Assembly (NCBI GenBank): GCA_963682005.1
Contig: OY820914.1
Span: forward strand, 3,908,145-3,972,144
Source: Bacteroidales bacterium
Lineage (GTDB): Bacteria > Bacteroidota > Bacteroidia > Bacteroidales > FEN-979
Reading direction: 5' to 3'
DNA length: 64,000 nt
Shown here: positions 5,032 through 42,940 of the stretch, piece after piece
How positions within the stretch are numbered: the stretch's first letter is position 1
How the letters are laid out: each line of letters opens with the position of its first letter
Translations under genes and position numbers: made by a program
Notes under the pieces: generated by a model
The model's input: the letters and a program-made list of their open reading frames with translations, nothing else
Told to the model about the DNA's origin: nothing
Database searches by the model: none

Positions 5032-6532
5032 TCTTTATCTTTTTAAGAAGATACTCTAACCCGATCAATTCACTGCATGTCTGAACTGCACCGATCGTAA
5101 CGCCAAGTACCCCGTGAAGATTGGTGTTCTGCCCCGTAAAAAAGAGTCCCGGGATCTTTGTTCTCGGAAGAACGATTGTTTCCAACGGATGATTGAAATC
5201 CTTCTGAATGCCATACATCGAACCTTCAGGGGTTCCTGTATAATCGCGCCAGGTAAGGGGAGAGGCTGCATCAATGCTTTTTAAGCATGCCCTGATACCT
5301 GGGAATTTATGTTCAACAAGATCCAGGAGTAGTTCCGTTTTCTTTTCCTTCCATTCATTATAGGACCGGCCCCTGCTTCCAACAATCGTTTTATCCCATG
5401 TCCTGACCTCGTTGAAGTCCATGTATGTCATTATTATGGCTGACTTTGCATATTCATTCATTCCTGAGTATGCTGGAGTATGAAGCATATAAAAGGAAGG
5501 CCAGATCCGGGCTGACCGGGCTGACCAGACATCATAACTTGTATGAAAATAGAAATTGTGATCAAGGTTTTTAAAACTGTTCTCTTTAAAAACAAGATAT
5601 AATGAGAAGGATGAGATGGTGTTCCCGAAATTTATCATTCTCCCTGACCAGGACTTTCTTACAGGGATCCCGTCGAACATGCTGATGGTGGCCGAAGGAT
5701 GGATATCCGAGATCAGGCGTTCTGCCTGGAAATTCAGACCGTCTCTGGTTATGGCTGTGAAAGTATCGTTCCCGAACCTGATCTTTGAAACTTCTTGTTT
5801 TGTAAGAAGCTGTCCGCCGTTTGATAAGATCTGATTTACCAATATCGTGGCCATCCTGTTACTTCCATCAACAGGACGCCATGCACCGGAGATAAATGAA
5901 TGATTGACCAGAGCGGCGATGTAGAGGGGTGTTTTATCACGTTCTCCTGCGTAAAGGAAATTGTTGCCGGCAAGGACGGATGAAAGGTGGCCCCTCTCCC
6001 CGGCCCCCTCCCCAAAAAGGGAGGGGGAATTAAGGTTCTGGTAGTATTTGAGGGCGGATTGATCTTTATATTGATTTTCTGAGTGGTTTCCAGGGATCTC
6101 AAGGTTATACAGCGGAAATGATCTGCTTATCTCCTGCAATTTATTTGTATAGGATCGCAATGATCCTTCCTGGTCAGGAAAGAAGGGGAGAAGTTGCTCT
6201 GTGAAGTTGTCAAATCCCATTGCAATGGGGTATTCAATATCATTGAATGAGATGACGTCAAATCCGTCAGGGTTCATTCGCCTGAACAATTCTTTGCCGG
6301 TAAGGCCAAAATAGCTGAAATACCTGTGAAGTACCTCGCCTTCATCCAATCCGCCAATATAGTGGACACCGGTATCGAACTCAACACCGTTTCGAATGAA
6401 CGTCTGCAGACACCCGCCTGGTTGGTGATGTTTCTCAAGGATGCAAACACTCATTCCTTCCCTGCTCAGGATGGCACCGCATAGCAATCCTCCCAATCCG
6501 CTACCGATTATGATAACATCGGATTTCATCAT
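5024..6532 (-). CDS. FAD-dependent oxidoreductase, phytoene desaturase (CrtI)-like
   Basis: 502 aa with an N-terminal dinucleotide-binding motif (VIIIGSGLGGLLCGAILS...EKHHQPGG). It has an ATGA overlap with the upstream gene and an 8-nt overlap with the downstream gene. Confidence 0.75.
   Translation of the reverse strand: MMKSDVIIIGSGLGGLLCGAILSREGMSVCILEKHHQPGGCLQTFIRNGVEFDTGVHYIGGLDEGEVLHRYFSYFGLTGKELFRRMNPDGFDVISFNDIEYPIAMGFDNFTEQLLPFFPDQEGSLRSYTNKLQEISRSFPLYNLEIPGNHSENQYKDQSALKYYQNLNSPSLFGEGAGERGHLSSVLAGNNFLYAGERDKTPLYIAALVNHSFISGAWRPVDGSNRMATILVNQILSNGGQLLTKQEVSKIRFGNDTFTAITRDGLNFQAERLISDIHPSATISMFDGIPVRKSWSGRMINFGNTISSFSLYLVFKENSFKNLDHNFYFHTSYDVWSARSARIWPSFYMLHTPAYSGMNEYAKSAIIMTYMDFNEVRTWDKTIVGSRGRSYNEWKEKKTELLLDLVEHKFPGIRACLKSIDAASPLTWRDYTGTPEGSMYGIQKDFNHPLETIVLPRTKIPGLFFTGQNTNLHGVLGVTIGAVQTCSELIGLEYLLKKIKND
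5991..6032. repeat. REP-like G/C hairpin element lying in frame inside the CrtI-like CDS
   Basis: Reads cccctctccccggccccctccccaaaaagggagggggaatt. There is a 9-bp stem (6004-6012 pairs with 6019-6027) and a 6-nt loop. It encodes SPSLFGEGAGERGH on the minus strand and resembles the inner hairpin of the 19181-19243 element. Confidence 0.65.
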
Positions 6533-9500
6533 GGACGGATAATTATAAGAATGTTGGACGTCAGTTTATTGTCGTCGATCACTTCAATATTCAGGTTAAA
6601 TTCATCAACAACCCTCCTGATCATTTCCTGGGAAGTGAAATAGAGTGACCCGGAATCCTCAATTGTTTTGTTGAATCCCGACCTGGTAGAAAAGAATTCG
6701 GTCAGCCGGGTACCTGCATGGCGTTCCTTCTTTGACTGATCTGCATCACGGATGATGATCACCCCATTCTTCTTCAGATTGGTCATACAGGATCGCAACA
6801 GCTTTTCCTGTTCCGGTTCAGGAAGGTAATGCAGAATATCAGACATCAGGAAAGCGTCTTGTGAAATGACAGGATATTTGGTGATATCACAGGAAATAAA
6901 CGTGATCCGGTCATTCTTCGCATAACAATTATTTGCAACAGCAATTTTCTCCGGATCATAGTCAATTGCGGTGATCATACGGTCTTTGGAGGTAAAAGCC
7001 AGGATGTATGAGATGTAACCGTAACCACATCCGATATCGAGAATATCACCTTTTCGCGGCATGAGTGAATCAATGACACGATAATTCTTTTCCAGCCTCA
7101 TCTTGATCTTTACGTACCATTCAAGAACCGGCCCTTTAAAGATGTAATTCAGAGCGATCATTCTTCTGTAATAATCCGGTGTTCCCATCTCTGATCTGAA
7201 TTCATCATAGAGATGTATATAATGTTGCCGCCAGCCTCTTGTTTTCTCAGATACAGTGGTTCCAAAACGGGTATCATCCCAGGCCACCCTCGGTTGTATC
7301 TTCATGTACAACCCATTGGGCTTTCCCCAGAAAACCCCCCGGGGAAGGAAATCGCCTGAGCCAAAGACCACGATAGGTAATATATCCACCTTCAGTTTTT
7401 CCGAAAGATAGAAGGCGCCACGATGAAACCTCCTGATATTATGGTCATCCGAACGATGTCCTTCAGGAAAGATCAGGATCGAATAACCATCCGCCACAAT
7501 GTCCTTCAGTTTATCCATAATTGCATCGATCCCTTCATCAGCATTGAAATAACTTGCCATCCTTGCGATCGGACCAAATACAGGTGACTTATAGACCCAT
7601 GCCGTGGTCAGGATGATGATCTTCGGATACAACCTGAGGAATGCAGGAGTTTCGATAAGAGACTGGTGATTGCTGATAATGATAGCCGGTTTTACAAAGT
7701 CTTCACCCAGTGGATTCAGGAGCTTTCGTTCTATCGGGAAAGTAAATGCTATGTATGCTCTACAGAGCATTGAAAAGGTCTTGTGGAAAATGTATTGCTT
7801 GCGTTTCTTCGGGACAGGTAACAAAATGAAGATCAGCGAACCGAAGATAACCATGATGACAGAGATCAAAACGATATTTCCCCATGTGACAAAGGTTTTA
7901 ACGACGATCCGGGCGGTGATGGGAAAGATGCCCTGGCGTTGCCTGTCAAGAAGGAAAAGATTCATCAGCCATGGTTGGATCGTAAATGAAATGACCACAA
8001 CAGAAGTTATTCCTACAACGGAAATCAGCGCGATTGAATTCAGTGCGGGATGACGCGCAAAAAACAAGGCTCCAACCCCGATTAGCGTTGTAATGGCGGA
8101 GAGGAAGATGGATGTTTTATAGGTTGTGAGCTCAGAAAGGCCATATTTTGAATTATGGAGAAGTCCGCGCATCATGAGGATGCTGTAATCCACCCCAAGG
8201 CCAAAAATGAAGGAGGAGATAATGATGTTGATGATATTGAAACGGATATCAAATGCTCCCATAAAACCCAGCGTGATCACCCAGCTGAGGAACATTGGCA
8301 GAGCTGCGATAAGGCCTAACTCAATCCTTCCGAAGGACAAAATGAGCAGCAACGATACAAAGATCATGGAAAGCCTCACCAGGAGATCAAAATCATGCCT
8401 GACATTTTCAACAAGACGATCGGAGATGAGTTGCCTGTCGAACACAACAAGGTTCGGATGACCGGAAAATGCGCTGCTGACCAGTTCCTTTTTTTCCCCG
8501 GGGACTTTGATAATCGTGGAGATCATGGTCATTTCGGGGGTTTCATTGATCCACTCGGCCAGGAATCTTATTTTAACCCTGTTAGTCTCCTGAACATTCA
8601 TGGGACTGAATTTCCTGTAAAGAAGATCCATCACCGGGTTGAATGCGGATTCCCTGAATTTGTATTTTTTTCCCGTTTCAATCAGCCGCTTCCGGAGGTT
8701 GTCTTTTCGCTCAGGAGTCCAGAATTGCTCCCAACGGTTCAATCGTTTAGCTTGAACAGAATCCGATGGAAGCATGAGGCCAACGGCGGATTGTTGAACC
8801 AGGAATTTCCCGTCATTGACCGATCGGACATAAAACTCATTCTTTTCATGGTTTTTCAAAACGGAGGCCAAATCTTTCCCTGTGGAAACAAGGTAAACAT
8901 TTTTCATCGAGGCATTGTTGAGCCTGTCGAGGTTTCTCTCTCCCTTTCGCAATTCATCCGTCATGTAATTGATGGACATCATATTTTTCTCAAATCCGGT
9001 TTTCCGTATCAGGAATAATCCACCTGCAGTGAGAAGAAGAATAATCGTGATCAGGCCATACTTTTTTTCAAAGTGAACAGACACAATACTATTAATGATC
9101 TCTGTCCTCCCGGGATTGTCTGAGAAATCCCTTTTGTCAAGGAAGTGAGGGAGAAGCACAAGGGCAAAGAATGCGGCCCCTGCAACGCTTAAGCTGGCAA
9201 ACCATCCCAGGTCATGCAGAACGCCGGATTTCAGAAAGACAAGACAAATGAATGCTGCAGCAGATGTCAGGAAACAGAGGAAAATCGTAAGCGACATTTC
9301 TTCGAGGGTGGCTTCAATATCATGCGTCTTCCTGAAATGATTAATAATATAAAGTGCATAATCCACGATCAGACCCAGGATCACCGTGCCGATCCCGAGA
9401 GCGATGGCGGATATTGTTCCTTTGGTGATATACATAATTGACAAGGCAAATGCACCGCCGAAAAGAGCCGGCAGGAATCCCAGCAAAGGGTATTTAATGC

Positions 9501-10380
9501 TCTTGAAATACCAGGCAAGGAGCAGGATGATAAGCCCGATGGAAATTGAAAACGTGATGGTAATATCCTTTTTTAACCGGTCCGCATTCGCTGATGCAAC
9601 GGCAATGCTTCCAAAATATTCACCTTTGACCTGCCCGTTCGACTCTTCGGACATCGTGCTGAGGATTGAACCGACACCTTTGATCAATTTCCCGTTCCGT
9701 TTCGACTCGCTTGCGGGATTTGCTGAGGTGATGAATATCAGCAGGTTTTTCCGGTCACTGGTCATGATGTATCCGTCTTCGATCACGAAATTATCACCCG
9801 ATGCAAGAGTTCTCATTTTCTGCAATGGGATCATCGTAAATCCAAGCGGATCCTTAACAAGGACATTTTTTAGTGCAAAACTCGCCGGAGAAACAAGCAT
9901 CCTGTAATTGTTACGCATCGTTTTCTCAATGGAATCGGGCAAGAGCGATTTTTCAATCTGCCGATAATCTTCATCGGTTAAATAAATGGGAAGATGATCA
10001 TAAAAAAAGTTGAAATAATAAGCCATCAATGTATCAGGGATGGCGCCGGTCACAGATTTAATGGTCGAGGAATCAAACGCGGAGGATAATTTACCGGTAA
10101 AACTGGCTGCAGCATCTATCAAACGGCGGGGGTCGGCAGGTGCATTGGTATCAGCCTGGTAGAGGCGAACGACAAGCTTATCAAAAAATTTAAAATGATG
10201 CACGACATATTCAAAGTGATCATGATTACCATTACTGATCCTCTCCCCTGAAATATTCTCCTCAAACGTGATCCGTGATGCAAGAATGATCATTCCGGCC
10301 AGAAGCGAGATGCAAAAGACAAGGAATGTAATCCTGTGCCTTTTGAAAAACCTGTATACCCGGATGAAAAAATTTGACAT
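6529..10380 (-). CDS. three-domain fusion: MMPL/RND-type membrane exporter + PlsC-type acyltransferase + SAM-dependent methyltransferase
   Basis: 1283 aa. Residues ~1-810 contain two multi-TM bundles typical of MMPL. Residues ~860-1060 carry acyltransferase motifs (SNHQSLIETP and FPEGHRS). Residues ~1090-1283 carry methyltransferase motif I (ILDIGCGYGYISYILA). Confidence 0.75.
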   Translation of the reverse strand: MSNFFIRVYRFFKRHRITFLVFCISLLAGMIILASRITFEENISGERISNGNHDHFEYVVHHFKFFDKLVVRLYQADTNAPADPRRLIDAAASFTGKLSSAFDSSTIKSVTGAIPDTLMAYYFNFFYDHLPIYLTDEDYRQIEKSLLPDSIEKTMRNNYRMLVSPASFALKNVLVKDPLGFTMIPLQKMRTLASGDNFVIEDGYIMTSDRKNLLIFITSANPASESKRNGKLIKGVGSILSTMSEESNGQVKGEYFGSIAVASANADRLKKDITITFSISIGLIILLLAWYFKSIKYPLLGFLPALFGGAFALSIMYITKGTISAIALGIGTVILGLIVDYALYIINHFRKTHDIEATLEEMSLTIFLCFLTSAAAFICLVFLKSGVLHDLGWFASLSVAGAAFFALVLLPHFLDKRDFSDNPGRTEIINSIVSVHFEKKYGLITIILLLTAGGLFLIRKTGFEKNMMSINYMTDELRKGERNLDRLNNASMKNVYLVSTGKDLASVLKNHEKNEFYVRSVNDGKFLVQQSAVGLMLPSDSVQAKRLNRWEQFWTPERKDNLRKRLIETGKKYKFRESAFNPVMDLLYRKFSPMNVQETNRVKIRFLAEWINETPEMTMISTIIKVPGEKKELVSSAFSGHPNLVVFDRQLISDRLVENVRHDFDLLVRLSMIFVSLLLILSFGRIELGLIAALPMFLSWVITLGFMGAFDIRFNIINIIISSFIFGLGVDYSILMMRGLLHNSKYGLSELTTYKTSIFLSAITTLIGVGALFFARHPALNSIALISVVGITSVVVISFTIQPWLMNLFLLDRQRQGIFPITARIVVKTFVTWGNIVLISVIMVIFGSLIFILLPVPKKRKQYIFHKTFSMLCRAYIAFTFPIERKLLNPLGEDFVKPAIIISNHQSLIETPAFLRLYPKIIILTTAWVYKSPVFGPIARMASYFNADEGIDAIMDKLKDIVADGYSILIFPEGHRSDDHNIRRFHRGAFYLSEKLKVDILPIVVFGSGDFLPRGVFWGKPNGLYMKIQPRVAWDDTRFGTTVSEKTRGWRQHYIHLYDEFRSEMGTPDYYRRMIALNYIFKGPVLEWYVKIKMRLEKNYRVIDSLMPRKGDILDIGCGYGYISYILAFTSKDRMITAIDYDPEKIAVANNCYAKNDRITFISCDITKYPVISQDAFLMSDILHYLPEPEQEKLLRSCMTNLKKNGVIIIRDADQSKKERHAGTRLTEFFSTRSGFNKTIEDSGSLYFTSQEMIRRVVDEFNLNIEVIDDNKLTSNILIIIRP

Positions 10381-10390: not shown

Positions 10391-11608
10391 TTACTTTATG
10401 GATCCTGATTGTTCCTGAGCCGTGACGTTATGTTTTTTCCTGAAAATTGTGAGTAAAATGTATGAAGCCGTTCCGCCTGCAGTTGCAAGGCAGATACCGA
10501 AAAAAGCACTGCCGATAAGGTATTGCAGAAGATTTTCCTTCACCCAGTGCATTGAAAAGCCGGGGTTATACTGAACCTCCGGGCCATGGGACCCAAGTAA
10601 AAATCCGCCAAAAATATAACTCAGAAAAAGAATCACCGGCAACAAAGGAGGAATGCTTATGTTCGATGCAGCAATCGTCACGAATTTATTTAATTTGAAG
10701 AGATGAGCTGTGCCAAATGCAATCATCATCTGCCATCCCCAGACAGGTGTGACCCCGATAAACAATCCGATGGCCACTGAAAAAGCAAGCCGCATATTCG
10801 AATCTTTGCTCTCGAGGACATGATCCCGGATGAATTGCCTGATCGATTTCTTCCGGATCTCTTTTAAGAATTGGACAGGTCTTACCCATAGAAGCGCTAT
10901 AAAAACCAGAAGTGTGTTCAGGATGCTTATCCTTGTGAAATCCCGGAATTTCCGGAAATGGGAGACCCGTTCATCTTTTGGTGCATAGTAGACATTGACA
11001 GGCAAGGCCAGTATTCTGATCCCTTTCCAGGCAGCCCTGACAAGCACTTCCACCTCGAACTCGAATTTCCTGGTATAAAATTTAACGTCTTTCAACAGGG
11101 CTATCGGGTATAAACGGTAACCTGACTGAACATCCGGGATCTTCAATCCTGTTTCAACCTTGTACCAGAAGATGGAGAACTTGTGCCCGAAACTGCTGGT
11201 TCCCGGAACATCGGACTGATCCATATTCCTTGCACCCACGATAAGAGAATCGGGGTCCTTTTCAATCCAGTCGATGAATGCAGGAAGATCAGCCGGAAAA
11301 TGCTGGCCATCCGAATCGATGGTGATCGCATAGCGAAATCCTTTTTTTACCGCAAAGCTGAATGCATTGCGAAGGGCCATTCCCTTTCCCATGTTTTCAG
11401 GATGTGTGAGGATATGGAGGCGCCTGAATTTTTCGAGAATTACGGGCGTATTGTCGGTGGAGCCGTCATTGACAATGATGATATCGTTCGTATAGTTTTC
11501 CACATCCCGAATGACCATTTCCAGCGTTTTGTCATTATTATAGGTTGGAATGATGACACAACACTTCTGTTCCGAGAATTTTTTTCTGATCCCTGTAAAA
11601 TCGTGCAT
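10391..11608 (-). CDS. family 2 glycosyltransferase fused to a C-terminal membrane (DUF2062-like) domain
   Basis: GT2 signature CCVIIPTYNNDKTL...IIIVNDGSTDNT...ITIDSDGQH, followed by hydrophobic C-terminal helices. I trimmed the start to MHDFTG (ATG at 11608); the 542-aa track ORF reads through an intergenic tandem repeat. Confidence 0.75.
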   Translation of the reverse strand: MHDFTGIRKKFSEQKCCVIIPTYNNDKTLEMVIRDVENYTNDIIIVNDGSTDNTPVILEKFRRLHILTHPENMGKGMALRNAFSFAVKKGFRYAITIDSDGQHFPADLPAFIDWIEKDPDSLIVGARNMDQSDVPGTSSFGHKFSIFWYKVETGLKIPDVQSGYRLYPIALLKDVKFYTRKFEFEVEVLVRAAWKGIRILALPVNVYYAPKDERVSHFRKFRDFTRISILNTLLVFIALLWVRPVQFLKEIRKKSIRQFIRDHVLESKDSNMRLAFSVAIGLFIGVTPVWGWQMMIAFGTAHLFKLNKFVTIAASNISIPPLLPVILFLSYIFGGFLLGSHGPEVQYNPGFSMHWVKENLLQYLIGSAFFGICLATAGGTASYILLTIFRKKHNVTAQEQSGSIK

Positions 11609-11639
11609 TTCAGAAGTTGGAGGATGATATGAATGAAGA

Positions 11640-11647
11640 CAAAAGTA
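11640..11647 (-). promoter_or_regulatory. candidate Bacteroidetes -7 box (TActTTTG) for the GT2 operon
   Basis: The minus strand reads TACTTTTG, matching TAnnTTTG. It lies 32 nt upstream of the ATG at 11608, and only a near-match -33 (TTTC) lies 17 nt further upstream. Confidence 0.3.
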
Positions 11648-11678
11648 CGAATTTTCTGCTAATGGAAAGTGAAGAGAA

Positions 11679-11712
11679 GCTGGATGCTGGATGCTGGATG
11701 CTGGATGCTGGA
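11679..11712. repeat. tandem heptamer array GCTGGAT x ~4.9
   Basis: Direct reading: gctggatgctggatgctggatgctggatgctgga. The reverse complement CCAGCATCCAGC occurs at 11786-11797. Confidence 0.9.
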
Positions 11713-11830
11713 GTATAATATTTTGGCAAGTTAACGATATTTGTTTTTGGACACACACAAATCCCAATACCCGAAACACACACAACCAGCATCCAGCTTC
11801 GCCAATTAAGATTATTAGTATTTTTGCCGG

Positions 11831-13171
11831 GTGAAGATCCTCCTGATAAACCCGCCGCGTTCGCCGGAAAACAATATCCTGAAATTCGCCCCGGAGGCGG
11901 CAAAACAATTTATCCATAAGAAACTGATCGGTCCCCCGCTGGGATTGCTCACCATTGCTGCTGCTGTAAAAGATCATGATGTAACAGTCTTTGATTCGAA
12001 AGGGGAGTATGATCTTCATCCGGATGGACCTTCCCTGGAATTACTGGTGAAAGGACTTCTGGAAAAGCACAAACCAGATATCGTCGGAGTGACGATCATC
12101 ACCTCTGAGTTTGATCTTTCGCTTGAGATTTTTCGTGTTGTAAAAGAATATGACCCGGGGATTCTCACGGTAGCCGGGGGATTGCATGCCACACTCTGCC
12201 CGAAGGATTTTGCGGAGACACCCGTGGATGTGACAATCCCCGGCCAGTGCGCCCACATTTTCAGAGAGGTTGTCATTACGGCTGAAAGCAAAAAGGATCT
12301 TGCAATGGTGCCGGGGATTCTTCTTAATACAGATAATGGCTTTACAAAAACAAATGGAACTGCAAGGCCGTTTGATCATTCCGATGCCGGCTTCCTGAAA
12401 ATTGACAGGCGTTTCCTGGATAAGTGGATCGGCACATACAAAGTCGGGAACAGCCCTTTTCCTTCCACGTATGTTTACACTTCCCTGGGTTGTCCTTATA
12501 AATGTACATTCTGCTCGATCTGGACACAGTTTAAAGGAAAATATTATCAGCGTGATGTGGAGAGTCTCATCGAAGAGCTGAAATCGATCGATGAATACCC
12601 GGTTGTGCGGTTTGCAGATGCCAATACAGTGGTTGACTTTGATTTCATGAACCTCCTGTTCGACCGGATCGTTGAGGAAGGGATCAAAAAGACTTTTATC
12701 ATGGATATCCGTGCCGATGTGGTGGTTCAGCAACCTGCGCTCATCGAGAAATTCGCAAAGGCCGGATTGAAAGTCGTGATCTGCGGGTTTGAATCGTTCC
12801 GGGACAGTGAACTGAAAAAATACAATAAGTCATCACCGGCAAGGTATAACCAGGAAGCCATCGGCATCTTTGAGAAGAATGGCATCTTGGTCCGGGGAAA
12901 TTATGTGATACCGAATGATTACACCGCGGATGACTTTAAGGCACTGGCTGACTATTCCGCTGCGAACCCCGTGGTATATGCAGGATATACAATTTTAACA
13001 CCCATGCCGGGAACGGTCTATTATAACCAGGTCAGGCACCAGATCGTGGATCACGATTACCGGAAATACAATTTTTTTAATTCCGTGATGAAGACCGTAA
13101 TCCCGCATGATGAGTTTCATGAAATGGTCGGGGGACTTTGGCTGATCAAGAAAGGGAAAGACGTTATATAA
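11831..13171 (+). CDS. B12-binding domain-containing radical SAM protein (rSAM-2)
   Basis: 446 aa with a GTG start (MKILLINPP). It has a B12-binding-like N-terminus (PDIVGVTII) and CxxxCxxC in SLGCPYKCTFCSIW. Confidence 0.8.
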   Translation: MKILLINPPRSPENNILKFAPEAAKQFIHKKLIGPPLGLLTIAAAVKDHDVTVFDSKGEYDLHPDGPSLELLVKGLLEKHKPDIVGVTIITSEFDLSLEIFRVVKEYDPGILTVAGGLHATLCPKDFAETPVDVTIPGQCAHIFREVVITAESKKDLAMVPGILLNTDNGFTKTNGTARPFDHSDAGFLKIDRRFLDKWIGTYKVGNSPFPSTYVYTSLGCPYKCTFCSIWTQFKGKYYQRDVESLIEELKSIDEYPVVRFADANTVVDFDFMNLLFDRIVEEGIKKTFIMDIRADVVVQQPALIEKFAKAGLKVVICGFESFRDSELKKYNKSSPARYNQEAIGIFEKNGILVRGNYVIPNDYTADDFKALADYSAANPVVYAGYTILTPMPGTVYYNQVRHQIVDHDYRKYNFFNSVMKTVIPHDEFHEMVGGLWLIKKGKDVI

Positions 13172-13172
13172 T

Positions 13173-13205
13173 GAATATTGAACATTGAATATTGAACATT
13201 GAATA
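13173..13205. repeat. tandem array GAATATT/GAACATT (14-nt unit x ~2.3)
   Basis: Direct reading immediately after the TAA stop at 13169-13171. A related ggaatattgaatcttga precedes the next start codon. Confidence 0.85.
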
Positions 13206-13382
13206 GAGAAAATAAAGTCCAATCTGAAAAGCTCTGTTTACCACAAAGGCGCAAACCTGCCTGCTGGCGGGCAGGAACGCTAAAAATGAACTCATTGTAT
13301 CAAATTATTTGCGTCTTGGCGTCTTAGCGGTAAAGTTTTAAAAATCACTTTTCGGAGTAAACGCAACATGGAATATTGAATC

Positions 13383-14810
13383 TTGAAAAGAATTCTCCTG
13401 GTAAATACGAACATTGAAAAGATGCCGTACCCGGTGCCGCCGCTGGGATTGTGTTTACTGGCGTCGAGCCTTGAAAGTGACTATGAGGTAAAGATCTATG
13501 ACGGGGTGTTTGATGAAGGAAGGTCCTTGGTTGATGTTGTTAAAGAATTCAATCCCGATTATATCGGGTTCAGCATCCGGAATGTCGATGATATTGTTGC
13601 AGACCGAAAGGTGTTCTACATCGACAGGATCATCTCTGATTTTATAAACCCTGTAAGGAACTGCACAAATGTCCCGCTGATCATTGGCGGAAGCGGATTC
13701 AGCATGTTCCCGGAGGAGCTGATGGAAATGACGGGAGTAGATTATGGGATAGCGGGAGAGGGGGAGAAACTAATGATGGCTCTGATCTACTCACTCAACC
13801 AGGGGGTGCAGCCTCCAACTAGCCCGCAGATCCTGGTGAAAGGGCAGAAGAATCCGGGAATATCGACAAGTGTTTCCTTCCTCGAACTTTCCGGGATGAA
13901 ATTATCCGAGATCGACCGGCATATCGATTTTACGCCATACAAACAGCGCGGTGCCTATTCAATCCAGACAAAGCGCGGGTGTTCCCACGGGTGCATTTAC
14001 TGCACATACCCTGTTGTTGAAGGTTCCTGCTTCCGGATGCGTGATCCGTATGAGATCGCGTGTGAAATTGAGGCAGCAGCCAAAAGGCTGGGCGATGTGA
14101 TGTTTGAATTCGTGGATTCGACGTTCAACGATCCGAAAGGACATGCGGAAGCGATTTGCAGGGAGATCATAAAAATGAAGCTGAAGGTGAGGCTGCGCAC
14201 CATGGGAATAAACCCGGGGCACAGCAGCAGGGAGCTTTTTCAGTTGATGATCGATGCAGGATTTACCCAGATCGATGCAACCCCCGACAGCGCTTCGCCG
14301 AAAGTGATGAAAAACCTGGGCAAAGGATTCAACCTGGAAGAGACCCGGCGCATGGCTGACCTGATCAGGGAATTCAACCTCCCGACGATGTGGTTCTTTC
14401 TATTCGGCGGGCCGGGAGAGGATGAGGTCACTTTTGCTGAAACACTTGATTTCATTGACCAATTTGTCAACCCGGATGACCTGGTTTATATGACAGCCGG
14501 CCTCCGGATCTATCCACAGACACCCTTATACAATATCGCCTTAAAGGAAGGAAAGATCACTGCAGCGCAGTCGATCCTGAATCCGCCGGCTTATTATTTC
14601 CCCGACCGGTTGCCAAAAGAAAAGCTTGATTCCCTGATTGAAATTGCGGCCCGGACACGGCCAAACTGCCTTCCGGCAAATTCGACCACCCCGCCGGAGG
14701 AGATGAGGAAAGAGGCATTTATCCTGCGCCAGCAGGAAAACCTCACGGAACCTATGTTCAGAACGCTCCTCAGGATCAGGAAACGGTGGATTGCAGAAGG
14801 AAGATTGTGA
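13383..14810 (+). CDS. B12-binding domain-containing radical SAM protein (rSAM-3), paralog of rSAM-5
   Basis: 475 aa with a TTG start. It carries PDYIGFSIRNVDD and QTKRGCSHGCIYCTYP (CxxxCxxC). Its signature is very similar to that of the 40659-42026 product. Confidence 0.8.
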   Translation: MKRILLVNTNIEKMPYPVPPLGLCLLASSLESDYEVKIYDGVFDEGRSLVDVVKEFNPDYIGFSIRNVDDIVADRKVFYIDRIISDFINPVRNCTNVPLIIGGSGFSMFPEELMEMTGVDYGIAGEGEKLMMALIYSLNQGVQPPTSPQILVKGQKNPGISTSVSFLELSGMKLSEIDRHIDFTPYKQRGAYSIQTKRGCSHGCIYCTYPVVEGSCFRMRDPYEIACEIEAAAKRLGDVMFEFVDSTFNDPKGHAEAICREIIKMKLKVRLRTMGINPGHSSRELFQLMIDAGFTQIDATPDSASPKVMKNLGKGFNLEETRRMADLIREFNLPTMWFFLFGGPGEDEVTFAETLDFIDQFVNPDDLVYMTAGLRIYPQTPLYNIALKEGKITAAQSILNPPAYYFPDRLPKEKLDSLIEIAARTRPNCLPANSTTPPEEMRKEAFILRQQENLTEPMFRTLLRIRKRWIAEGRL

Positions 14811-14820
14811 ATAAAAGCTG

Positions 14821-14870
14821 GCTGTGCCTGAACTCTGTGTCCTCTGTGCCTTCCCTGTGACCTCTGTGGT
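14821..14870. repeat. CTCTGTG-family repeat block containing a dispersed 18-mer
   Basis: Reads gctgtgcctgaactctgtgtcctctgtgccttccctgtgacctctgtgg, between convergent gene ends. The 18-mer at 14842-14859 is the reverse complement of 17359-17376. Confidence 0.8.
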
Positions 14871-14880
14871 AAAGATAAAT

Positions 14881-15294
14881 TTACAGTTGAACGGTATTCT
14901 TAGGTTGCATGTCGGTCTCAAGACTCCAGATCGTTGCATTGCCATGTACCAGGCGGAAAACCGCCATCAGCTTGAACCCGGTTTGTTCGATCCAGCTCTT
15001 CAGAAATGGCCTTGCCTCAAGGATCTCTTTCTTCAGATCGATGTCTTTATCCAGGTTTTCCACAGTCCCTGATATTCTTACCTGGAAATCATCCTTGTGA
15101 AAACAAAGCTCTACCAAAGGATTCAATGATAACTGCCGGTAAAGGTCCTTGGATTTCGCGGTCATGAAATAGATGCCGGTATCGTCGGCCTTGTGCAGCA
15201 TGAGTGTCCGCACATGAGGGATGTTCCCGTCGGTCGTTGCCAACTGGAAGGAGGGGTTTTCTGTCAGGAATTTTAGTATCTCTTTTTTTGTCAT
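14881..15294 (-). CDS. pyridoxamine 5'-phosphate oxidase-like FMN-binding family protein
   Basis: About 137 aa from MTKKEILKFL. The pattern ...ATTDGNIPHVRTLML...YFMTAKSKDLYRQL..NP.VELCF is typical of the PNPOx-like/general-stress-26 fold. The start is trimmed from the track's 15309. Confidence 0.55.
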   Translation of the reverse strand: MTKKEILKFLTENPSFQLATTDGNIPHVRTLMLHKADDTGIYFMTAKSKDLYRQLSLNPLVELCFHKDDFQVRISGTVENLDKDIDLKKEILEARPFLKSWIEQTGFKLMAVFRLVHGNATIWSLETDMQPKNTVQL

Positions 15295-15373
15295 TTTTCT
15301 ATAGCACACGGATTACGCGGATCAGGCGGATTTACACGGATAAGCTTATAAGCGATAATCCGCAAAATCCGCG

Positions 15374-16288
15374 TTATCCGCGTTCCAATAAGTTAATAAC
15401 CGGGAAGAAGTCGGAATTTCCTTCCACGAATTTAGCATTTTTTGCAAGGTTTCGACAGGGACCGCATTCAATAAATGTTTTTACCCCCGATTCCTGCAGC
15501 TTTAGTTGTGTTTTATACCAGTTCAGCCGGGTATAAAGATTCCTTACGAATTCATGAGCCAGGGCTTCCTTTGTAATGATCATAACCTGGTCAACCAGCG
15601 AAATGATCCTCACGGATGGTTCTTTGATGGCAATGTTTCCTGCGATGAACTTTTCGAATCGTGCGGCCGTTCCGGCTAACAACCGTGAATGGTACGGAAC
15701 CGAAACCCTTAGCATCACCGTATTCAGCGCTCCTTCGTTTTTTGCCGTTTCCATCAGCTCAGAAATCTCCTTATGGTTTCCTGATAGTACGAATGAATAG
15801 GCGCTGTTCTGATTCGTGATCTCAATGGAAGGGAAACTTTTGGAGATCATTTCTTCAAGGTCTGACTGGCTTAATCCAAGGATGGCGGCCATCCCGAACT
15901 TCGTTTCACCGATAATTTCCAGGATTGACGAATAGGCTTCCCTGATAAGCAATAATCCGTCTTCAAAGGAGATCGCACCAGCCTGGAAGGCAGCAGCATA
16001 GATTCCCATGCTGTAACCGGCGCTGTATGCGGGAAAGATGTTCTTTTCCTTCAGTAATTGTGAATAACTGCATCCGAGGATATCGGAAATATACTGGGTT
16101 CGGAGTTCTTCCTCCAGAAAATCATTTGAAGCAGGGTGGAACGATGTCAGTGCCGGATCAACGGTCTTTGCGGCAATGGTAAGAAAGTTACGGAATATCG
16201 CGCCGAAATCCTTGTCACGGCCGAGAAGATCATCCGGATAATCGTTGACGAAGGCAGGAAATATAAAGGCTATGGGTTGTGTAAGCAC
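15374..16288 (-). CDS. ACP S-malonyltransferase (FabD)-like acyltransferase
   Basis: 304 aa with a GxSxG nucleophile elbow (AGYSMGIYAA). It starts with AFIFPAFVN-type residues and has VSVPYHS, as in malonyl-CoA:ACP transacylases. Confidence 0.7.
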   Translation of the reverse strand: MLTQPIAFIFPAFVNDYPDDLLGRDKDFGAIFRNFLTIAAKTVDPALTSFHPASNDFLEEELRTQYISDILGCSYSQLLKEKNIFPAYSAGYSMGIYAAAFQAGAISFEDGLLLIREAYSSILEIIGETKFGMAAILGLSQSDLEEMISKSFPSIEITNQNSAYSFVLSGNHKEISELMETAKNEGALNTVMLRVSVPYHSRLLAGTAARFEKFIAGNIAIKEPSVRIISLVDQVMIITKEALAHEFVRNLYTRLNWYKTQLKLQESGVKTFIECGPCRNLAKNAKFVEGNSDFFPVINLLERG

Positions 16289-16605: not shown

Positions 16606-16656
16606 TCCTGATATTTATTTTGGGGTTATCTGATCTGCAAAAATACACTATTTTAT

Positions 16657-16700
16657 TTTTCACTCTTAACTTTTCACTCTTCACTTTTCACTCTTCACTT
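16657..16700. repeat. tandem 14-nt unit TTTTCACTCTTCAC x ~3
   Basis: Direct reading: ttttcactcttaacttttcactcttcacttttcactcttcactt. Confidence 0.85.
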
Positions 16701-16856
16701 GTAATTGGCTTTCAAATCTAAAATCCAAAATGGCAATATCTAAAAATATTCAGGATTTTGGATTTTACCATTTTACCATTTAAAACGGGTCAGCCAAAAA
16801 ATCAACCGCAAAGGCGCCCGAAGGTCGTCACTAAGGCGCTCAAAGGCGCATCTTCT

Positions 16857-16896
16857 CATTTTACATTTTGCATTTTGCATTTTGCATTTTGCATTT
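16857..16896. repeat. tandem heptamer array GCATTTT x ~5.5
   Basis: Direct reading: cattttacattttgcattttgcattttgcattttgcattt. Confidence 0.9.
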
Positions 16897-17407
16897 GATA
16901 TGCCTGTATCCTTCCTGTATGCTTCCTGTATGCAAATTCTGAACAAATCATTCTGAAGGTGCTCAATAGATGATTCTGAAAACCCTAATACTGACTTCAT
17001 TGGCAAACAATTTTCAATCAAATATTTGGGAAAACTAAATGTTAAGCATATGCCTTCGGGCTTACACCTGGAGTTTTTCATTATACATTGGAGGTCAATG
17101 GTAAGTTAAGCGGTGTTAAAAAGATGATTGTGATGGAATGATTTGAATTTACCCTGTTGGATTTTCCCACCCTTTCATCGGGGAATTCATCAGGAAGAAA
17201 ATATAATTACACGCGGAAGAAAATTAATTTCATGCGGGTGTAATTTTCAAAGTAAGTATTGAATAGAATTCCTGCATTTTGCATTATGCACTCCTGCATT
17301 GAAAAGGCCGCCAGCCAGGCTCCGTGACTCTGTGGTAAAAAAAACTCAACACGGAGAACACAGGGAAGGCACAGAGTTCACAGAGGTATTGTACCCAATG
17401 TGTTCTT

Positions 17408-19266: not shown

Positions 19267-20313
19267 TCAGGAAACAATATCCAGCGGACCATTGTCAATG
19301 CCAAAATACTCCCTGATCGCATCGTTTAGGTCCTGGATGTTGCATTTGGATTGGGCTGCGAACCTTTTTACGGCGGAGATGTAGGTAAAGGAAAGCCGTT
19401 TCCTGATCTCTTCATCGACCGGGTCATTATCAAGGACGCGACCCCGTTCGGATGTCCCCTGCTCGGGCGGATAAGAAAAAAATCCTTCTGAAGCTTTCAT
19501 CCCTGTTTTTCCTTCCGAGACCATCTTTTCGAGATGATGGATCAGCGGCAGATAATAATCCTTGTGCGGATAGGTGCGGACATAGTTTTTAACCGAAGCG
19601 AGCATGATATCGATACCGACGCTGTCCATGAATTCAAATGCGCCGGTCGGGAAAAAATACTTCCTCACAATACGGTCCATCTCCCGGAACGAATGGTTTT
19701 CCTGTGTTGCGATGAGGAAGGCTTCATTCTGGAAATCCAGGAAGATCCGGTTCAGGATGTGCCCGTCCTTTTCGTTTAAGATCATGTATTTCCGGTTTAT
19801 CGCCTGAAGGAATTTCTCAACTGTCTCCTGTGTTTGCCAGGAGGTATCATCGGTAACGATGAATTCGACGATATTTTTCAGCGCGACCGGATAGAAAAAA
19901 TGAAGGCCGATAAAACTCCGTTTCCGGATACAGGCAGGAAGCAGTTCACAGGGATTTACCGATGAAGAGCTGGTGGCGAGGATGGTACTGACCGGTACGA
20001 TGGGATCGATCGCCTTGAAAAGCCTGCGTTTCAGACTTGCGTTTTCGAATATTGTCTCGATGATTAGTTCACAAGTAGCCAGTTCAGCAATGTCTTTTGT
20101 AATTGTGACCTCTTTCTGAAGCGTTTCAAACCTCGACTGGCTGACCAGGTTATTGTCCAGTGAACGTTTGATCTTTTTCAGAAAAGTTTTACGGATCTTG
20201 TCAATATCAGCCTCCTGGCTGCAGATCCATACCAGGGTGAAATCAAAATCCAAAAGGTAATAAAACAGGTTGGTACCCATTTTGCCTTCGCCGATTATTC
20301 CTATGTTCTTCAT
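19267..20313 (-). CDS. 3-hydroxyacyl-CoA dehydrogenase family protein
   Basis: Rossmann motif IGIIGEGKMGTNLF with a 3HCDH-like core (HFFYPVALKNIVE). The start is trimmed to MKNIGIIG (20313) because the track's first 7 codons lie in a heptamer repeat. Confidence 0.65.
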   Translation of the reverse strand: MKNIGIIGEGKMGTNLFYYLLDFDFTLVWICSQEADIDKIRKTFLKKIKRSLDNNLVSQSRFETLQKEVTITKDIAELATCELIIETIFENASLKRRLFKAIDPIVPVSTILATSSSSVNPCELLPACIRKRSFIGLHFFYPVALKNIVEFIVTDDTSWQTQETVEKFLQAINRKYMILNEKDGHILNRIFLDFQNEAFLIATQENHSFREMDRIVRKYFFPTGAFEFMDSVGIDIMLASVKNYVRTYPHKDYYLPLIHHLEKMVSEGKTGMKASEGFFSYPPEQGTSERGRVLDNDPVDEEIRKRLSFTYISAVKRFAAQSKCNIQDLNDAIREYFGIDNGPLDIVS

Positions 20314-20319
20314 GTTATC

Positions 20320-20389
20320 AAATCCAAAATCCAAAATCTAAAGTCTAAAATCTAAAGTCAAAAGTCAAAAGTCAAAAGTTAAAAGTCAA
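20320..20389. repeat. tandem heptamer array AAAATCC/AAAGTCA family x ~10
   Basis: Direct reading: aaatccaaaatccaaaatctaaagtctaaaatctaaagtcaaaagtcaaaagtcaaaagttaaaagtcaa. Confidence 0.9.
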
Positions 20390-20400
20390 CTAAACTTATT

Positions 20401-20430
20401 ATCCCGCATCCCGCATCGCGCATCCCGCAT
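20401..20430. repeat. tandem heptamer array CCCGCAT x ~4
   Basis: Reads atcccgcatcccgcatcgcgcatcccgcat and abuts the stop codon of rSAM-4 (20431). The same unit occurs at 51665-51699. Confidence 0.9.
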
Positions 20431-21975
20431 CTAGGTTCCAGCATCCCTCAACGGTCCCTCATCATGTTCTTTTACGATCTCGCGGTATTTCTCCATATTC
20501 TTTTTATGGTCGAGAATATGACGGTGATAGCCGAGCATGGAGAGCATGAAACCAAGTCCTTTGTCGATGGCGATCTTCTTTTCACGGATCAGTCCGAAGA
20601 TGAACCGGAACAATTTTCTTCGTTCGGGATCGGATGATATTACAAACTCTTTGAACGTGATCCACGATAATCTCGCTTTAAGAAATAGAGAAATATCTCC
20701 TCCTTTGCGTGTGAAAGCCCCGCTGCTGAAAAGTTGTTCGGCTTTAGGCCTTATGTTTTTGAAATCATAGAAACGTGCGATCGTTTCCATGTATTTTTCA
20801 AAGATATCAACCTGTGAAAGATTCTTGTAATGAACCGTCGGGAAATGGCCGACACCCAATTCGGGGTCACAATGCAGCAACCTGCCTTCGTCCTTCAGTC
20901 TTTTATGAAGTTCTGTCCCCGGCGGGGCGGCAAGCAGATGCAGGTTGACATTCGACAGGTCCATTTTCATTGTGAAGTCGAAGATATCGTCAAAAGCCTG
21001 GAGTTTATCATGATCAAAACCAACAACGAATGAGGCATTGATATGGATCCCGGCTGCGTGGATCTTCCGGATGGCGGGTTCGTAGATCGTCGCTTCCTTG
21101 TTATGAAGCTTATTGCTTTCACCAAGGCTTTCGGGGTTCAGCGATTCAAAACCGATGAGGATGTTGAAGCAGCCGGCATCGGCCATGAGTTCCAGCAATT
21201 CCTCATCATTGGCCACATCCAGGCTGCTCATGCAACCCCAGGAAATATTGAGGGGCTTGATGGCCTTCATAAGTTCCTTCGCGTATTTCTTGTTGATGGT
21301 CAGGTTATCATCGACAAAGAAAAAATAGGAGGATGGTGCTGCTTTTATCTCTTCCACCACATTTTCAATGGTGCGGTAGCGCATTTTTCTTCCGAAGATC
21401 TTTGAAACAAGGCAGAAATCGCAGTTGAACGGGCATCCCCTCGAAACCTGGATACCAACCTGGAAGATTTTTTTCATGCTGACAAGGTCCCAGCGGGGCG
21501 GTTTCTGGCTTTTGTACGGTACAGCAATATCAGACCTGTAAACGGGCTTCATATTTCCCTGTTCAAAATCCGAAAGGCATTCTTCCCACAATCCTTCCGC
21601 TTCTCCAACCACCACTGCATCGGCGTGCTTAAGTGATTCTTCCGTTGTGAACGAAGCGTATGGTCCGCCCAGGACGACTTTGACACCTTTTGACCGGTAA
21701 TGATCCGAAAGCTCGTAGGCCCGCGTTATCGTCGCAGCGAGGGTTGTGATCCCGATGATATCCGGTATTTCATTGGCAGGAAGATCCTCAATTTCTTCGT
21801 CAAAGATCTTGATATCGTAATGATCAGGCGTAAGGGAAGCGATGGTTGGGAGCGCCAAAGGGATCATCAGCCGCTTCTTCCCGAACATCTTCGCCAGCTC
21901 ATTGTGGGCCGGGTAGTTGATGTACTTCTGTTTCGGACTGATCAGGAACAGGCTGTATCTCTTTCTGTTAATCAC
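20431..21975 (-). CDS. B12-binding domain-containing radical SAM protein (rSAM-4)
   Basis: 514 aa. It has a B12-binding-like N-terminus (PDIIGITTL...VVLGGPY) and CxxxCxxC in SRGCPFNCDFCLVS. Confidence 0.8.
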   Translation of the reverse strand: MINRKRYSLFLISPKQKYINYPAHNELAKMFGKKRLMIPLALPTIASLTPDHYDIKIFDEEIEDLPANEIPDIIGITTLAATITRAYELSDHYRSKGVKVVLGGPYASFTTEESLKHADAVVVGEAEGLWEECLSDFEQGNMKPVYRSDIAVPYKSQKPPRWDLVSMKKIFQVGIQVSRGCPFNCDFCLVSKIFGRKMRYRTIENVVEEIKAAPSSYFFFVDDNLTINKKYAKELMKAIKPLNISWGCMSSLDVANDEELLELMADAGCFNILIGFESLNPESLGESNKLHNKEATIYEPAIRKIHAAGIHINASFVVGFDHDKLQAFDDIFDFTMKMDLSNVNLHLLAAPPGTELHKRLKDEGRLLHCDPELGVGHFPTVHYKNLSQVDIFEKYMETIARFYDFKNIRPKAEQLFSSGAFTRKGGDISLFLKARLSWITFKEFVISSDPERRKLFRFIFGLIREKKIAIDKGLGFMLSMLGYHRHILDHKKNMEKYREIVKEHDEGPLRDAGT

Positions 21976-21982: not shown

Positions 21983-22010
21983 AATTACGAATTACGGATT
22001 ACGAATTACG
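21983..22010. repeat. tandem heptamer array AATTACG x 4
   Basis: Reads aattacgaattacggattacgaattacg, 8 nt upstream of the rSAM-4 start. A TTYTCAT x5 array follows at 22021-22055. Confidence 0.9.
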
Positions 22011-22044
22011 AAAGTTTAATTTTTCATTTTTCATTCTTCATTCC

Positions 22045-32395: not shown

Positions 32396-32653
32396 TTAAG
32401 ATTTTTTGTGCTCAGTGATGTATTCCGCCATCGTCCTGATGGAGAAAAAGATCTTCTTGCCATCTTTCGGATCCTCGATCTTGATCCCGTAATTCTTTTC
32501 CAGGAGTACGATCAGTTCAAGTGCATCGATGGAATCGAGGCCCAAACCTTCCCCGAATAGGGGAGAATCAGGGTTTATATCATCAACAGAGATATCTTCA
32601 AGGTTGAGTTGTTCAATTACCTCTTTCTTTAGTTTGTTAATCAGTTCATCCAT
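32396..32653 (-). CDS. acyl carrier protein
   Basis: 85 aa with the motif GLGLDSIDALELIV. Confidence 0.8.
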   Translation of the reverse strand: MDELINKLKKEVIEQLNLEDISVDDINPDSPLFGEGLGLDSIDALELIVLLEKNYGIKIEDPKDGKKIFFSIRTMAEYITEHKKS

Positions 32654-36319: not shown

Positions 36320-36380
36320 GTCATTCCCGCGAAAGCGGGAACAGGCTGCAGGCTGCAGGCTACAGGCTACAGGCTACAGG
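36320..36380. repeat. composite element: 23-nt hairpin GTCATTCCCGCGAAAGCGGGAAC followed by CAGGCTR x ~5.5
   Basis: Direct reading. An identical 23-mer occurs at 47228-47250 next to a second CAGGCTR array. Confidence 0.9.
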
Positions 36381-36422
36381 ATTGTATGTTCATAATTTTG
36401 GTTAGGAATCATTTCCATTAAA

Positions 36423-36453
36423 ATTCGCAATTCGTAATTCGTCATTCGTAATT
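36423..36453. repeat. tandem heptamer array ATTCGTA x ~4.4 (reverse complement of the AATTACG family)
   Basis: Reads attcgcaattcgtaattcgtcattcgtaatt, ending 3 nt from the ABC ATPase stop codon. Confidence 0.9.
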
Positions 36454-38228: not shown

Positions 38229-38243
38229 TCGTTATACATTTTA

Positions 38244-38645
38244 TTAATCTACAATTTTTAACTGGTCAACAGTAATATTAAAAGCTTCGGCATATTTCTG
38301 GAGGGTCTTCTCATTCAACCGGTTGAAGACACCAGGTTTAAAATGTCGTTTCACCCTCCAAAGTCCAATCCCGGAAATAATGGAAAGGTTCAATGGGTCC
38401 AGCAGGTTCTTTTCCATGTAATAAACGATCGGGCTGGCCGTTCCGCTCTTGACTTTTTGCCGGGCTTCTTCCGCGCGTTCCTTAAAATGGTCCCATGCCT
38501 GTTGCAGGACGACTCTGTCAGCTTCACCGTGAAAACCTACGCTTTGTTCATAATCGCCCTTTTCAGCGTATGAATAGAACAATTCACGGTACTGTCCGAA
38601 GTTTTGGTCTTTATAAACAGGGTTATCTTTGTTATCCATAGACAT
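38244..38645 (-). CDS. small conserved protein with possible C-terminal HTH, copy 1
   Basis: 133 aa. It is a paralog of the 39812-40225 product, sharing RELFYS...SP..YYMEK.L....L....G...WRVKRH.KP.VF..L. Confidence 0.5.
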   Translation of the reverse strand: MSMDNKDNPVYKDQNFGQYRELFYSYAEKGDYEQSVGFHGEADRVVLQQAWDHFKERAEEARQKVKSGTASPIVYYMEKNLLDPLNLSIISGIGLWRVKRHFKPGVFNRLNEKTLQKYAEAFNITVDQLKIVD

Positions 38646-42934: not shown

Positions 42935-42940
42935 CCTGGT

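Follow-up and report, generated by a model that had tools for sequence, protein, structure and literature searches.

Two plus-strand radical SAM genes in a minus-strand cluster

We analysed a 64,000-nt stretch of DNA from a Bacteroidales bacterium (hereafter, the window), and in it rSAM-2 and rSAM-3, two adjacent genes for B12-binding radical S-adenosylmethionine (SAM) proteins (B12-rSAMs) that lie on the plus strand within a cluster of minus-strand genes. Comparisons with Pfam and NCBIfam identify the cluster, of roughly 47 kb (~535-47090), as a flexirubin/aryl-polyene-type type II fatty acid synthase/polyketide synthase (FAS/PKS) cluster, which also holds 'ladderane-type' accessory genes. 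The features of the pair and of its borders are:

11609-11830: predicted divergent (bidirectional) promoter region, between the GT2-DUF2062 gene (minus strand, ATG at 11608) and rSAM-2
11640-11647, minus: putative Bacteroidetes-type -7 box TACTTTTG for the GT2-DUF2062/MMPL-acyltransferase-methyltransferase (MMPL-AT-MT) operon, 31 nt ahead of the ATG at 11608
11679-11712: array of 4.9 copies of GCTGGAT with 100% matches; with its inverted partner it spans 11676-11800, between both -7 boxes
11819-11826, plus: putative Bacteroidetes-type -7 box TATTTTTG serving rSAM-2/rSAM-3, at 4 nt from the GTG of rSAM-2
11831-13171, plus: rSAM-2, GTG start, 446 aa, first gene of the divergent pair, of an uncharacterised B12-rSAM subfamily
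13172-13382: rSAM-2/rSAM-3 spacer, with an array of TGAATATTGAACAT (2.4 copies), a GC-rich hairpin (13255-13276) and an array of GCGTCTTA (2.4 copies)
13383-14810, plus: rSAM-3, TTG start, 475 aa, second gene of the pair, TIGR04072-like
14811-14880: convergent junction between rSAM-3 and a PNPOx-like gene, holding a CTCTGTG-type block

By their domains, both products are class B (B12-binding) radical SAM proteins, with a predicted use of cobalamin. The B12-binding domain PF02310 (gathering score 32.1) scores 52.4 bits in rSAM-2 and 49.8 bits in rSAM-3, the Radical_SAM domain PF04055 (gathering score 29.5) scores 66.4 and 70.4 bits, and the CxxxCxxC cluster motif reads GCPYKCTFC and GCSHGCIYC, respectively. 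The N-termini of orthologues align from residue 1 (MKILLINPPRSPENNIL; MK[KR][VI]LLVNTN), supporting both unusual start codons; most relatives begin with ATG, and one (L005) shares the TTG start of rSAM-3. The public gene call of rSAM-3 (P0001, 462 aa) begins at an internal ATG and loses 13 conserved N-terminal residues (13383-13421), and judged from these alignments the TTG at 13383 fits all orthologues as the start codon. A first-pass annotation, made by a model from the letters and open reading frames (ORFs) of the window, had described the pair as B12-rSAM genes starting at GTG 11831 and TTG 13383, and as the only plus-strand genes of the cluster. Pfam domains and orthologue N-termini confirm the genes and their starts, and within 535-47090 family support is lacking for all other plus-strand ORFs: those of at least 100 aa overlap minus-strand genes, and those in gaps are short and derived from repeats.

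Gene order, promoter boxes and repeats around the pair

Scanning one genome per species yielded nine loci from metagenome-assembled genomes (MAGs) of Bacteroidales/Prolixibacteraceae, with rSAM-3 orthologues 52-66% identical, and three more contigs were taken from the protein collection. All 12 loci have the same layout: a GT2-DUF2062 gene on the minus strand, rSAM-2 and rSAM-3 on the plus strand and, after an optional gene, minus-strand genes for MCAT, an acyl carrier protein (ACP) and a ketosynthase (KS). In the relatives examined, rSAM-2 orthologues (61-76% identical) are always immediately upstream of rSAM-3. Some loci are compact and free of repeats, as in L016, with spacers of 29, 6 and -4 bp, and rSAM-2 and rSAM-3 are separated by 0 bp in L002 and overlap by 4 nt in contig P0120; the arrangement therefore exists without any repeats. 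The pair's opposite orientation reflects an operon layout that is conserved among relatives, within a cluster of a known kind, and the repeats beside the pair are generic.

Downstream of rSAM-3, the convergent slot varies in content (14811-15373 in the window, 11387-12880 in L001, 3279-5842 in L002 and 11497-14099 in L006). In six loci (the window, L003, L004, L005, L008 and L017) a PNPOx-like gene fills this slot; it has genes for a DUF1573-like lipoprotein, a histidine kinase and a response regulator in L002 and L006, and a 497-aa ArnT-like membrane glycosyltransferase gene in L001, and it is empty in L007, L009, L016 and P0120.

The Bacteroidetes -7 promoter consensus is TAnnTTTG, and we searched for this motif in place of a sigma-70 scan; a scan for sigma-70 promoters and intrinsic terminators over 11400-15400 gave counts equal to those of shuffled sequences and no useful sites. 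Boxes at both ends of the divergent spacer are kept in all relatives whose spacer was read: the GT2-side box has equivalents (CAAAAGTA / CAAAGATA / CAAAGGTA and similar) in L001-L006 and L008, and the one on the rSAM-2 side is 5-35 nt ahead of the start codon in L001-L008. There is no plus-strand TAnnTTTG box in the rSAM-2/rSAM-3 spacer (13172-13382), and co-transcription of the two genes is therefore likely. This fits with the two genes being separated by only 0-12 bp, or overlapping, in L002, L009, L016 and P0120. A conserved structured RNA between the two genes was considered and dropped, as an alignment of seven genomes did not show conservation in this spacer. Rfam, scanned over the whole window, gave one tRNA only, and neither a cobalamin riboswitch nor any further RNA close to the block. 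From these observations we infer that rSAM-2 followed by rSAM-3 would form an ancestral divergent two-gene operon, and that a short promoter region would serve both it and, in the opposite direction, the GT2-DUF2062/MMPL operon, each direction being driven by its own conserved TAnnTTTG box. The layout would thus define a stable, separately promoted two-gene tailoring unit.

The repeats that bracket the pair, as the first-pass annotation had reported them, are indeed present. On the left, the GCTGGAT array (11679-11712) has an inverted partner of 18 nt at 11783-11800, 94% complementary, and the resulting DNA hairpin (z = -2.6) folds better than 198 of 200 shuffles; array and hairpin are lineage-specific, being conserved in none of the relatives. 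The unit recurs in the window at 44705-44728, and as a tenfold array at a different place in L004 (21139-21210). On the right, the CTCTGTG-type block contains an imperfect period-9 array (14833-14868, 3.8 copies, 68% matches) and an 18-mer, CTCTGTGCCTTCCCTGTG (14842-14859), that has exactly one other copy, inverted, at 17359-17376, with a 14-mer recurring at 43347. As a hairpin terminator this block was rejected, because it does not fold (z = -0.7). The CTCTGTG/CACAGAG element forms a small dispersed family, entirely intergenic, at 14821-14873(+), 17345-17395(-) and 43340-43370(-), and its recurring GYGGTAAA motif occurs 9 times against 2.5 expected. Further sites of the element lie at 13237, 13327, 14866, 17332 and 59492, and the rSAM-2/rSAM-3 spacer of L003 contains comparable units of the CACAGAG type.

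Tandem Repeats Finder detected 22 period-7 arrays in the window, all of them within the 10% of the sequence that lies between genes. Twelve of the 26 spacers that reach 50 bp contain them, and further spacers have arrays of period 8 to 11. The arrays are thus a general feature of intergenic DNA in this genome and do not mark the rSAM block. Their units are many and different (for instance at 16657-16933, 20320-20431, 21983-22056, 36341-36453, 43264-43295, 44705-44767 and 51606-51698). Among the relatives, some carry heptamer arrays with other units and others carry none; L004, L006, L007 and L009 have their own arrays, of unrelated units, also within the rSAM-2/rSAM-3 spacer. Intergenic heptanucleotide long simple-sequence repeats have been described as TAACTGA arrays in Beggiatoaceae, Cyanobacteria and some Bacteroidetes (MacGregor 2015, PMC4679880), where heptanucleotide repeats are also credited to Mrazek 2007. 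As in those genomes, the arrays of the window are of period 7, strictly intergenic and of several units per spacer, and in both systems close relatives lack arrays and have shorter spacers; unlike in those genomes, the window contains many units rather than one dominant heptamer.

The three spacers around the pair (222, 211 and 70 bp) exceed those of most relatives, and the excess of the first and third roughly equals their arrays. The divergent spacer, of 27-135 bp in relatives, is about 100 bp longer in the window because the array and the hairpin were added, whereas the convergent junction measures 10-26 bp in relatives with a PNPOx-like gene, and the rSAM-2/rSAM-3 spacer 0-208 bp. Arrays of period 7, 8, 10, 11, 14 and 21 crowd the ACP-KS spacer (16606-17407), which measures 802 bp in the window and roughly 45-85 bp in relatives; a 102-aa ORF within this spacer (16773-17081, minus), without a family match, is probably spurious. 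The flanking repeats are thus this genome's general short tandem arrays of intergenic DNA, together with the small dispersed element, and they have lengthened three spacers. Between the PNPOx-like and MCAT genes (15300-15390), inverted CGCGGAT-type arrays make a strong DNA hairpin (-23.5 kcal/mol, z = -5.3, none of 200 shuffles being as good).

The first-pass annotation had proposed that the block may be an inversion or a later insertion bounded by repeat elements. The repeats at both junctions, the three long spacers and a direct repeat at 11669 and 14807 (18 nt, 15/18) agree with such an origin as a recent event, as does the composition of rSAM-3, which is the highest of the window's genes in GC (0.502) and GC3 (0.607), about +2 sd. 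Position and orientation are, however, identical in all 12 relatives, down to 52% identity and including the compact, repeat-free loci, which is the outcome that the annotation itself had named as contradicting its proposal. Both arms of the GCTGGAT pair lie on the left side of the block and therefore could invert just the 89 bp between them, and we found no significant repeat flanking the block on both sides. The only gene-spanning inverted pair (13224-13249 and 14861-14886, 20/26), which flanks rSAM-3, was judged to be a chance occurrence (one such pair observed, 0.93 expected), as was the direct repeat, which is no better than background (about 2 expected by chance). Moreover, about half of all spacers hold arrays, the KS gene at 17408 is comparably GC-high (0.498), and the codon-usage distance of the block is ordinary, so that its composition is not clearly anomalous with respect to neighbouring genes. 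We consider a recent, repeat-bounded rearrangement extremely improbable.

The GCTGGAT array and its hairpin could also be a functional switch, by slipped-strand changes in copy number or as a cruciform or protein-binding site, that balances expression of the rSAM and export operons. The array and its partner sit exactly between both -7 boxes, overlapping the expected -33 regions, and the hairpin outperforms nearly all of the shuffles. Inverted partners are also rare, occurring in three of 34 short-period arrays of the window in an exact-9-mer test; one of the three is GCTGGAT, and the other two partner each other beside a tRNA gene. The same test missed a further case, the imperfect hairpin at 15305-15384. 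Conversely, array and hairpin are conserved in no relative, the relatives manage with spacers of 27-135 bp, and similar arrays without a common unit are spread across many spacers. We regard such a switch as unlikely, and favour a conserved operon with generic repeats.

rSAM-3, rSAM-5 and the TIGR04072-like family

The cluster contains, in all, five B12-rSAM genes, and the first-pass annotation had singled out rSAM-3 and rSAM-5 as products of a duplication within it:

2045(-), 11831(+), 13383(+), 20431(-), 40659(-): the five B12-binding radical SAM genes
40659-42026, minus: rSAM-5, TIGR04072 member, distant paralogue of rSAM-3

The two are the closest pair among the five (33% identity over 435 aa, E 1e-64 to 1e-67) and belong to one subfamily, which the other three do not join. 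TIGR04072 is the NCBIfam model that best matches both; rSAM-5 passes its cut-off of 360 with 423.8 bits, and rSAM-2 and rSAM-3 fail. The PF02310 score of rSAM-5 is under the cut-off (27.7 against 32.1 bits), yet the protein aligns with TIGR04072 over its full length. A second pair, overlooked by the annotation, is formed by the genes at 2045 and 20431 (27% over 398 aa, E 1e-46).

The two motifs on which the duplication had been based, PDYIGFSIRNVDD / PDFTGISFRNIDD and QTKRGCSHGCIYCTYPVVEG / QTKRGCPHKCIYCTYPVIEG, are exactly as quoted. Nevertheless, both are family-wide, and hence hallmarks of the family rather than a sign of duplication within the cluster. Conservation across the family (in %) is P88 D68 ..G82.S88.R98 N97.D93 for the first motif, and Q91 T81 K76 R95 G100 C100 ...C100.Y96 C100.Y89 P97 ..E86 G100 for the second; over the 33 motif positions, the median family member matches rSAM-5 at 22, as compared with 25 for rSAM-3. 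The TIGR04072-like subfamily is large, with 783 cluster representatives at E ≤1e-30 to rSAM-5; for 134 of the best 150 of these, rSAM-5 gives a higher score than rSAM-3 does.

In a neighbour-joining tree of 142 sequences with 200 bootstraps, rSAM-5 is the 98th neighbour from rSAM-3, and rSAM-3 the 120th from rSAM-5, and the smallest clade containing both takes in 137 of the 142 taxa. The rSAM-3 clade, including a protein from Hydrogenedentota at 45% identity, was recovered in 200 of 200 bootstraps, and an exclusive grouping of rSAM-3 with rSAM-5 in none. The paralogy thus stands as membership of one subfamily, and the idea of a recent duplication within the cluster does not. Judged from these comparisons, rSAM-3 and rSAM-5 are deep paralogues, each with its own orthologous group and conserved genomic position.

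The conserved module of rSAM-5 is FlxA-FlxB-KS-ACP-acyltransferase-rSAM-ApeP-like. Its orthologues, 46-52% identical, keep this context: P0121 has the full series, FlxA-FlxB-KS-ACP-LpxL-like acyltransferase-rSAM-ApeP-like, and P0125 the ACP-acyltransferase-rSAM core. In the window, the LpxL-like acyltransferase gene (42023-42934) overlaps the rSAM-5 gene by 4 nt, and in P0131 (754 aa), a single metagenomic gene call, a Lip_A_acyltrans domain and a B12-rSAM of the rSAM-5 type are fused into one protein. Overlap and fusion suggest that the acyltransferase and rSAM-5 might be functionally coupled. The TIGR04072-like 'ladderane' rSAM family comprises two or more old orthologous groups whose fixed partners differ, namely the LpxL-like acyltransferase (fusion included) for rSAM-5, and rSAM-2 or, in another phylum, DarG/DarH for rSAM-3.

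The latter case comes from a Hydrogenedentota MAG (L010, 5886-11407), in which genes for an ABC ATPase, an ABC-2 permease, a DarG-family protein, DarH and an rSAM-3-type protein form a stand-alone five-gene module with unrelated flanking genes and no KS or ACP within 10 kb. This locus bears on an older history of the pair: the rSAM-2/rSAM-3 unit could have been recruited or inverted once, in an ancestor that predates the divergence of these Bacteroidales, independently of today's repeats, the rSAM-3-type gene having originally belonged to a DarG-DarH-ABC module. In L010 the rSAM-3-type gene, whose product is the 45%-identical member of the fully supported clade, is co-directional with the ABC, ABC-2, DarG and DarH genes and has no rSAM-2 partner; in the window, the DarG-DarH-ABC module adjoins rSAM-5 instead, and gene content downstream of rSAM-3 changes by gain and loss among relatives. 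However, the argument draws on one out-group locus, from which the direction of change is not inferable, and such an event is compatible with the conserved operon, to which it merely adds a deeper history. We consider an ancient inversion or insertion possible, with the balance tilting against it.

Two DarG-DarH pairs in the window are tandemly duplicated (37212-40225, minus; 39812/38788 and 38244/37212), with DarH copies 56% and DarG copies 44% identical. This is a genuine tandem duplication, much more recent than the split between rSAM-3 and rSAM-5.

Cluster setting and predicted chemistry

Besides KS, ACP, MCAT and the B12-rSAMs, the cluster contains equivalogs of both flexirubin marker enzymes:

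45537-47090: FlxA tyrosine ammonia-lyase, NCBIfam equivalog, 836.6 bits (cut-off 700)
44766-45494: FlxB reductase, NCBIfam equivalog, 389 bits (cut-off 340)

Accessory flexirubin proteins are also present according to NCBIfam: LolA2_flexi (216.7 bits, cut-off 125), LolB2_flexi (102.5 bits, cut-off 60), two DarH acyltransferases (418.4 and 399.7 bits, cut-off 300) and two DarG-family proteins (119-127 bits, cut-off 70). Other genes encode several pairs of KS and chain-length factor (CLF), ACPs, dehydratases (DH), thioesterases (TE), the MMPL-AT-MT fusion, the GT2-DUF2062 glycosyltransferase, a phytoene-desaturase-like flavoprotein, a C45 acyltransferase and ECH/3HCDH enzymes. The cluster resembles the reference flexirubin clusters of Chitinophaga pinensis and Flavobacterium johnsoniae (Schoener et al. 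2014, PMC3992019) in FlxA, FlxB, KS/CLF, ACP, DH, TE, LolA2/LolB2, acyltransferase, glycosyltransferase, exporter, DarG and DarH. Unlike them, it adds five B12-rSAM genes, a beta-oxidation-like ECH/3HCDH set and a haem-binding protein, and no DarA or DarB equivalog was detected among the proteins scanned. Within the library searched, no paper joins flexirubin with radical SAM enzymes.

TIGR04072, the 'lipid biosynthesis B12-binding/radical SAM protein' (rSAM_ladder_B12), was first noted in type II fatty acid synthesis (FASII) clusters of anammox bacteria considered as ladderane candidates, and in similar clusters of Deltaproteobacteria (Rattray et al. 2009, PMC2649909). A 'ladderane-type' cluster combines FASII genes with SAM-radical enzymes, a phytoene-desaturase-like gene, a glycosyltransferase and a deacetylase (PMC2649909), and genome-mining tools report such clusters widely outside anammox bacteria, with products unassigned (PMC9902471). 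The window is like these systems in domain architecture and in its KS/ACP, SAM-radical, phytoene-desaturase-like, glycosyltransferase, polysaccharide deacetylase and lipoprotein carrier genes, and KS, CLF, ACP, MCAT, DH and TE genes surround the rSAM-2/rSAM-3 block. It differs in that rSAM-3 is below the cut-off and in a clade of its own and rSAM-2 is unrelated (23.5 bits) and, from the anammox clusters, in its Bacteroidales host, its flexirubin markers and its lack of anammox genes. Flexirubin-type clusters loaded with B12-rSAM genes occur in anaerobic Bacteroidales.

To our knowledge, no member of the TIGR04072 family has a demonstrated reaction. Like the class B methylases TsrM, BzaD and HpnR, rSAM-2 and rSAM-3 have an N-terminal B12-binding domain and a radical SAM core; unlike them, they score far under the respective cut-offs (134/500, 187/450 and 137/650), and the substrates differ, so that only general chemistry is transferable. 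The closest solved structure to rSAM-3 is TsrM (6wte, E 2.9e-35), and its second-best NCBIfam match is BzaD (187 bits, cut-off 450). TsrM and BzaD methylate aromatic carbons. TsrM is a tryptophan C2-methyltransferase, and HpnR is the hopanoid C-3 methylase. By analogy, and with low confidence, the most likely chemistry would be C-methylation of an aryl/resorcinol ring or of a chain carbon, with an aromatic ring carbon favoured because TsrM and BzaD are the nearest characterised relatives of rSAM-3. In flexirubins, the ring methyl derives from methionine, and derivatives vary in ring methylation (PMC3992019).

Taking these lines together, rSAM-2 and rSAM-3 very probably constitute a conserved, ancestral divergent tailoring operon, fixed in a cluster of the flexirubin/aryl-polyene and 'ladderane-type' kind, with generic repeats around it and a deep paralogy to rSAM-5. 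Their products would be cobalamin-dependent radical SAM tailoring enzymes that act on an ACP-bound or lipid product.

Several points weigh against parts of this reading, in addition to the possible ancient rearrangement. The bidirectional promoter region that would drive the two-gene operon is predicted from sequence conservation alone, and a distance of 4 nt between box and GTG is awkward, since it needs a leaderless or near-leaderless mRNA with a GUG start, which is unusual. rSAM-2 fits no curated family: its best NCBIfam matches, HpnR (136.6 bits, cut-off 650) and BchE (125.4 bits, cut-off 481), both fail, and it is far from the TIGR04072 cut-off. rSAM-3 matches TIGR04072 over its full length, with 319.3 bits and thus under the cut-off. 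DarA had no match among those cluster proteins, a part of the total, that were scanned against NCBIfam, and the best candidate for DarB, the KSIII at 22045-23196, reaches 89.3 bits against a cut-off of 550; the product may therefore be something other than a classical flexirubin. The ring methyl could alternatively come from the class I SAM methyltransferase domain of the exporter fusion (6529-10380). Finally, B12-rSAM enzymes also perform non-methylation chemistry (BchE, AprD4 and OxsB-type reactions), which makes the chemical assignment weak.

The stand-alone Hydrogenedentota module, which combines both components, hints that TIGR04072-type enzymes might work with the DarG/DarH acyltransferase step; the window has two TIGR04072-type rSAMs and two DarG/DarH pairs. 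More speculatively, and with the chances clearly against it, the rSAM-2/rSAM-3 operon with rSAM-1, -4 and -5 could be an oxygen-independent, cobalamin-based tailoring set for a modified flexirubin-like aryl-polyene/resorcinol lipid in anaerobic Bacteroidales, the TIGR04072-type enzymes acting with the DarG/DarH module. Such a set might perform, for example, radical C-methylation of ring or chain, or an aromatisation replacing DarA. If true, this would be the first function for the widespread 'ladderane-type' rSAM family outside anammox bacteria.

Two further small ACP genes, 42931-43190(-) and 32396-32653(-), with DSLD and DSID motifs, are too short for the 100-aa ORF threshold, so that the cluster has at least three ACPs. 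On contig P0120, rSAM-4 and the adjacent 3-hydroxyacyl-CoA dehydrogenase (window counterpart 19267-21975) are called as a single 858-aa protein, either a fusion or a gene-calling artefact. Beyond the cluster, a tRNA-Arg(ACG) gene (48313-48481) is directly followed by AAAGTGC and TTTGCAC arrays that are mutual inverted complements, and sits in a 1.9-kb stretch (47091-48984) without any ORF of at least 100 aa.

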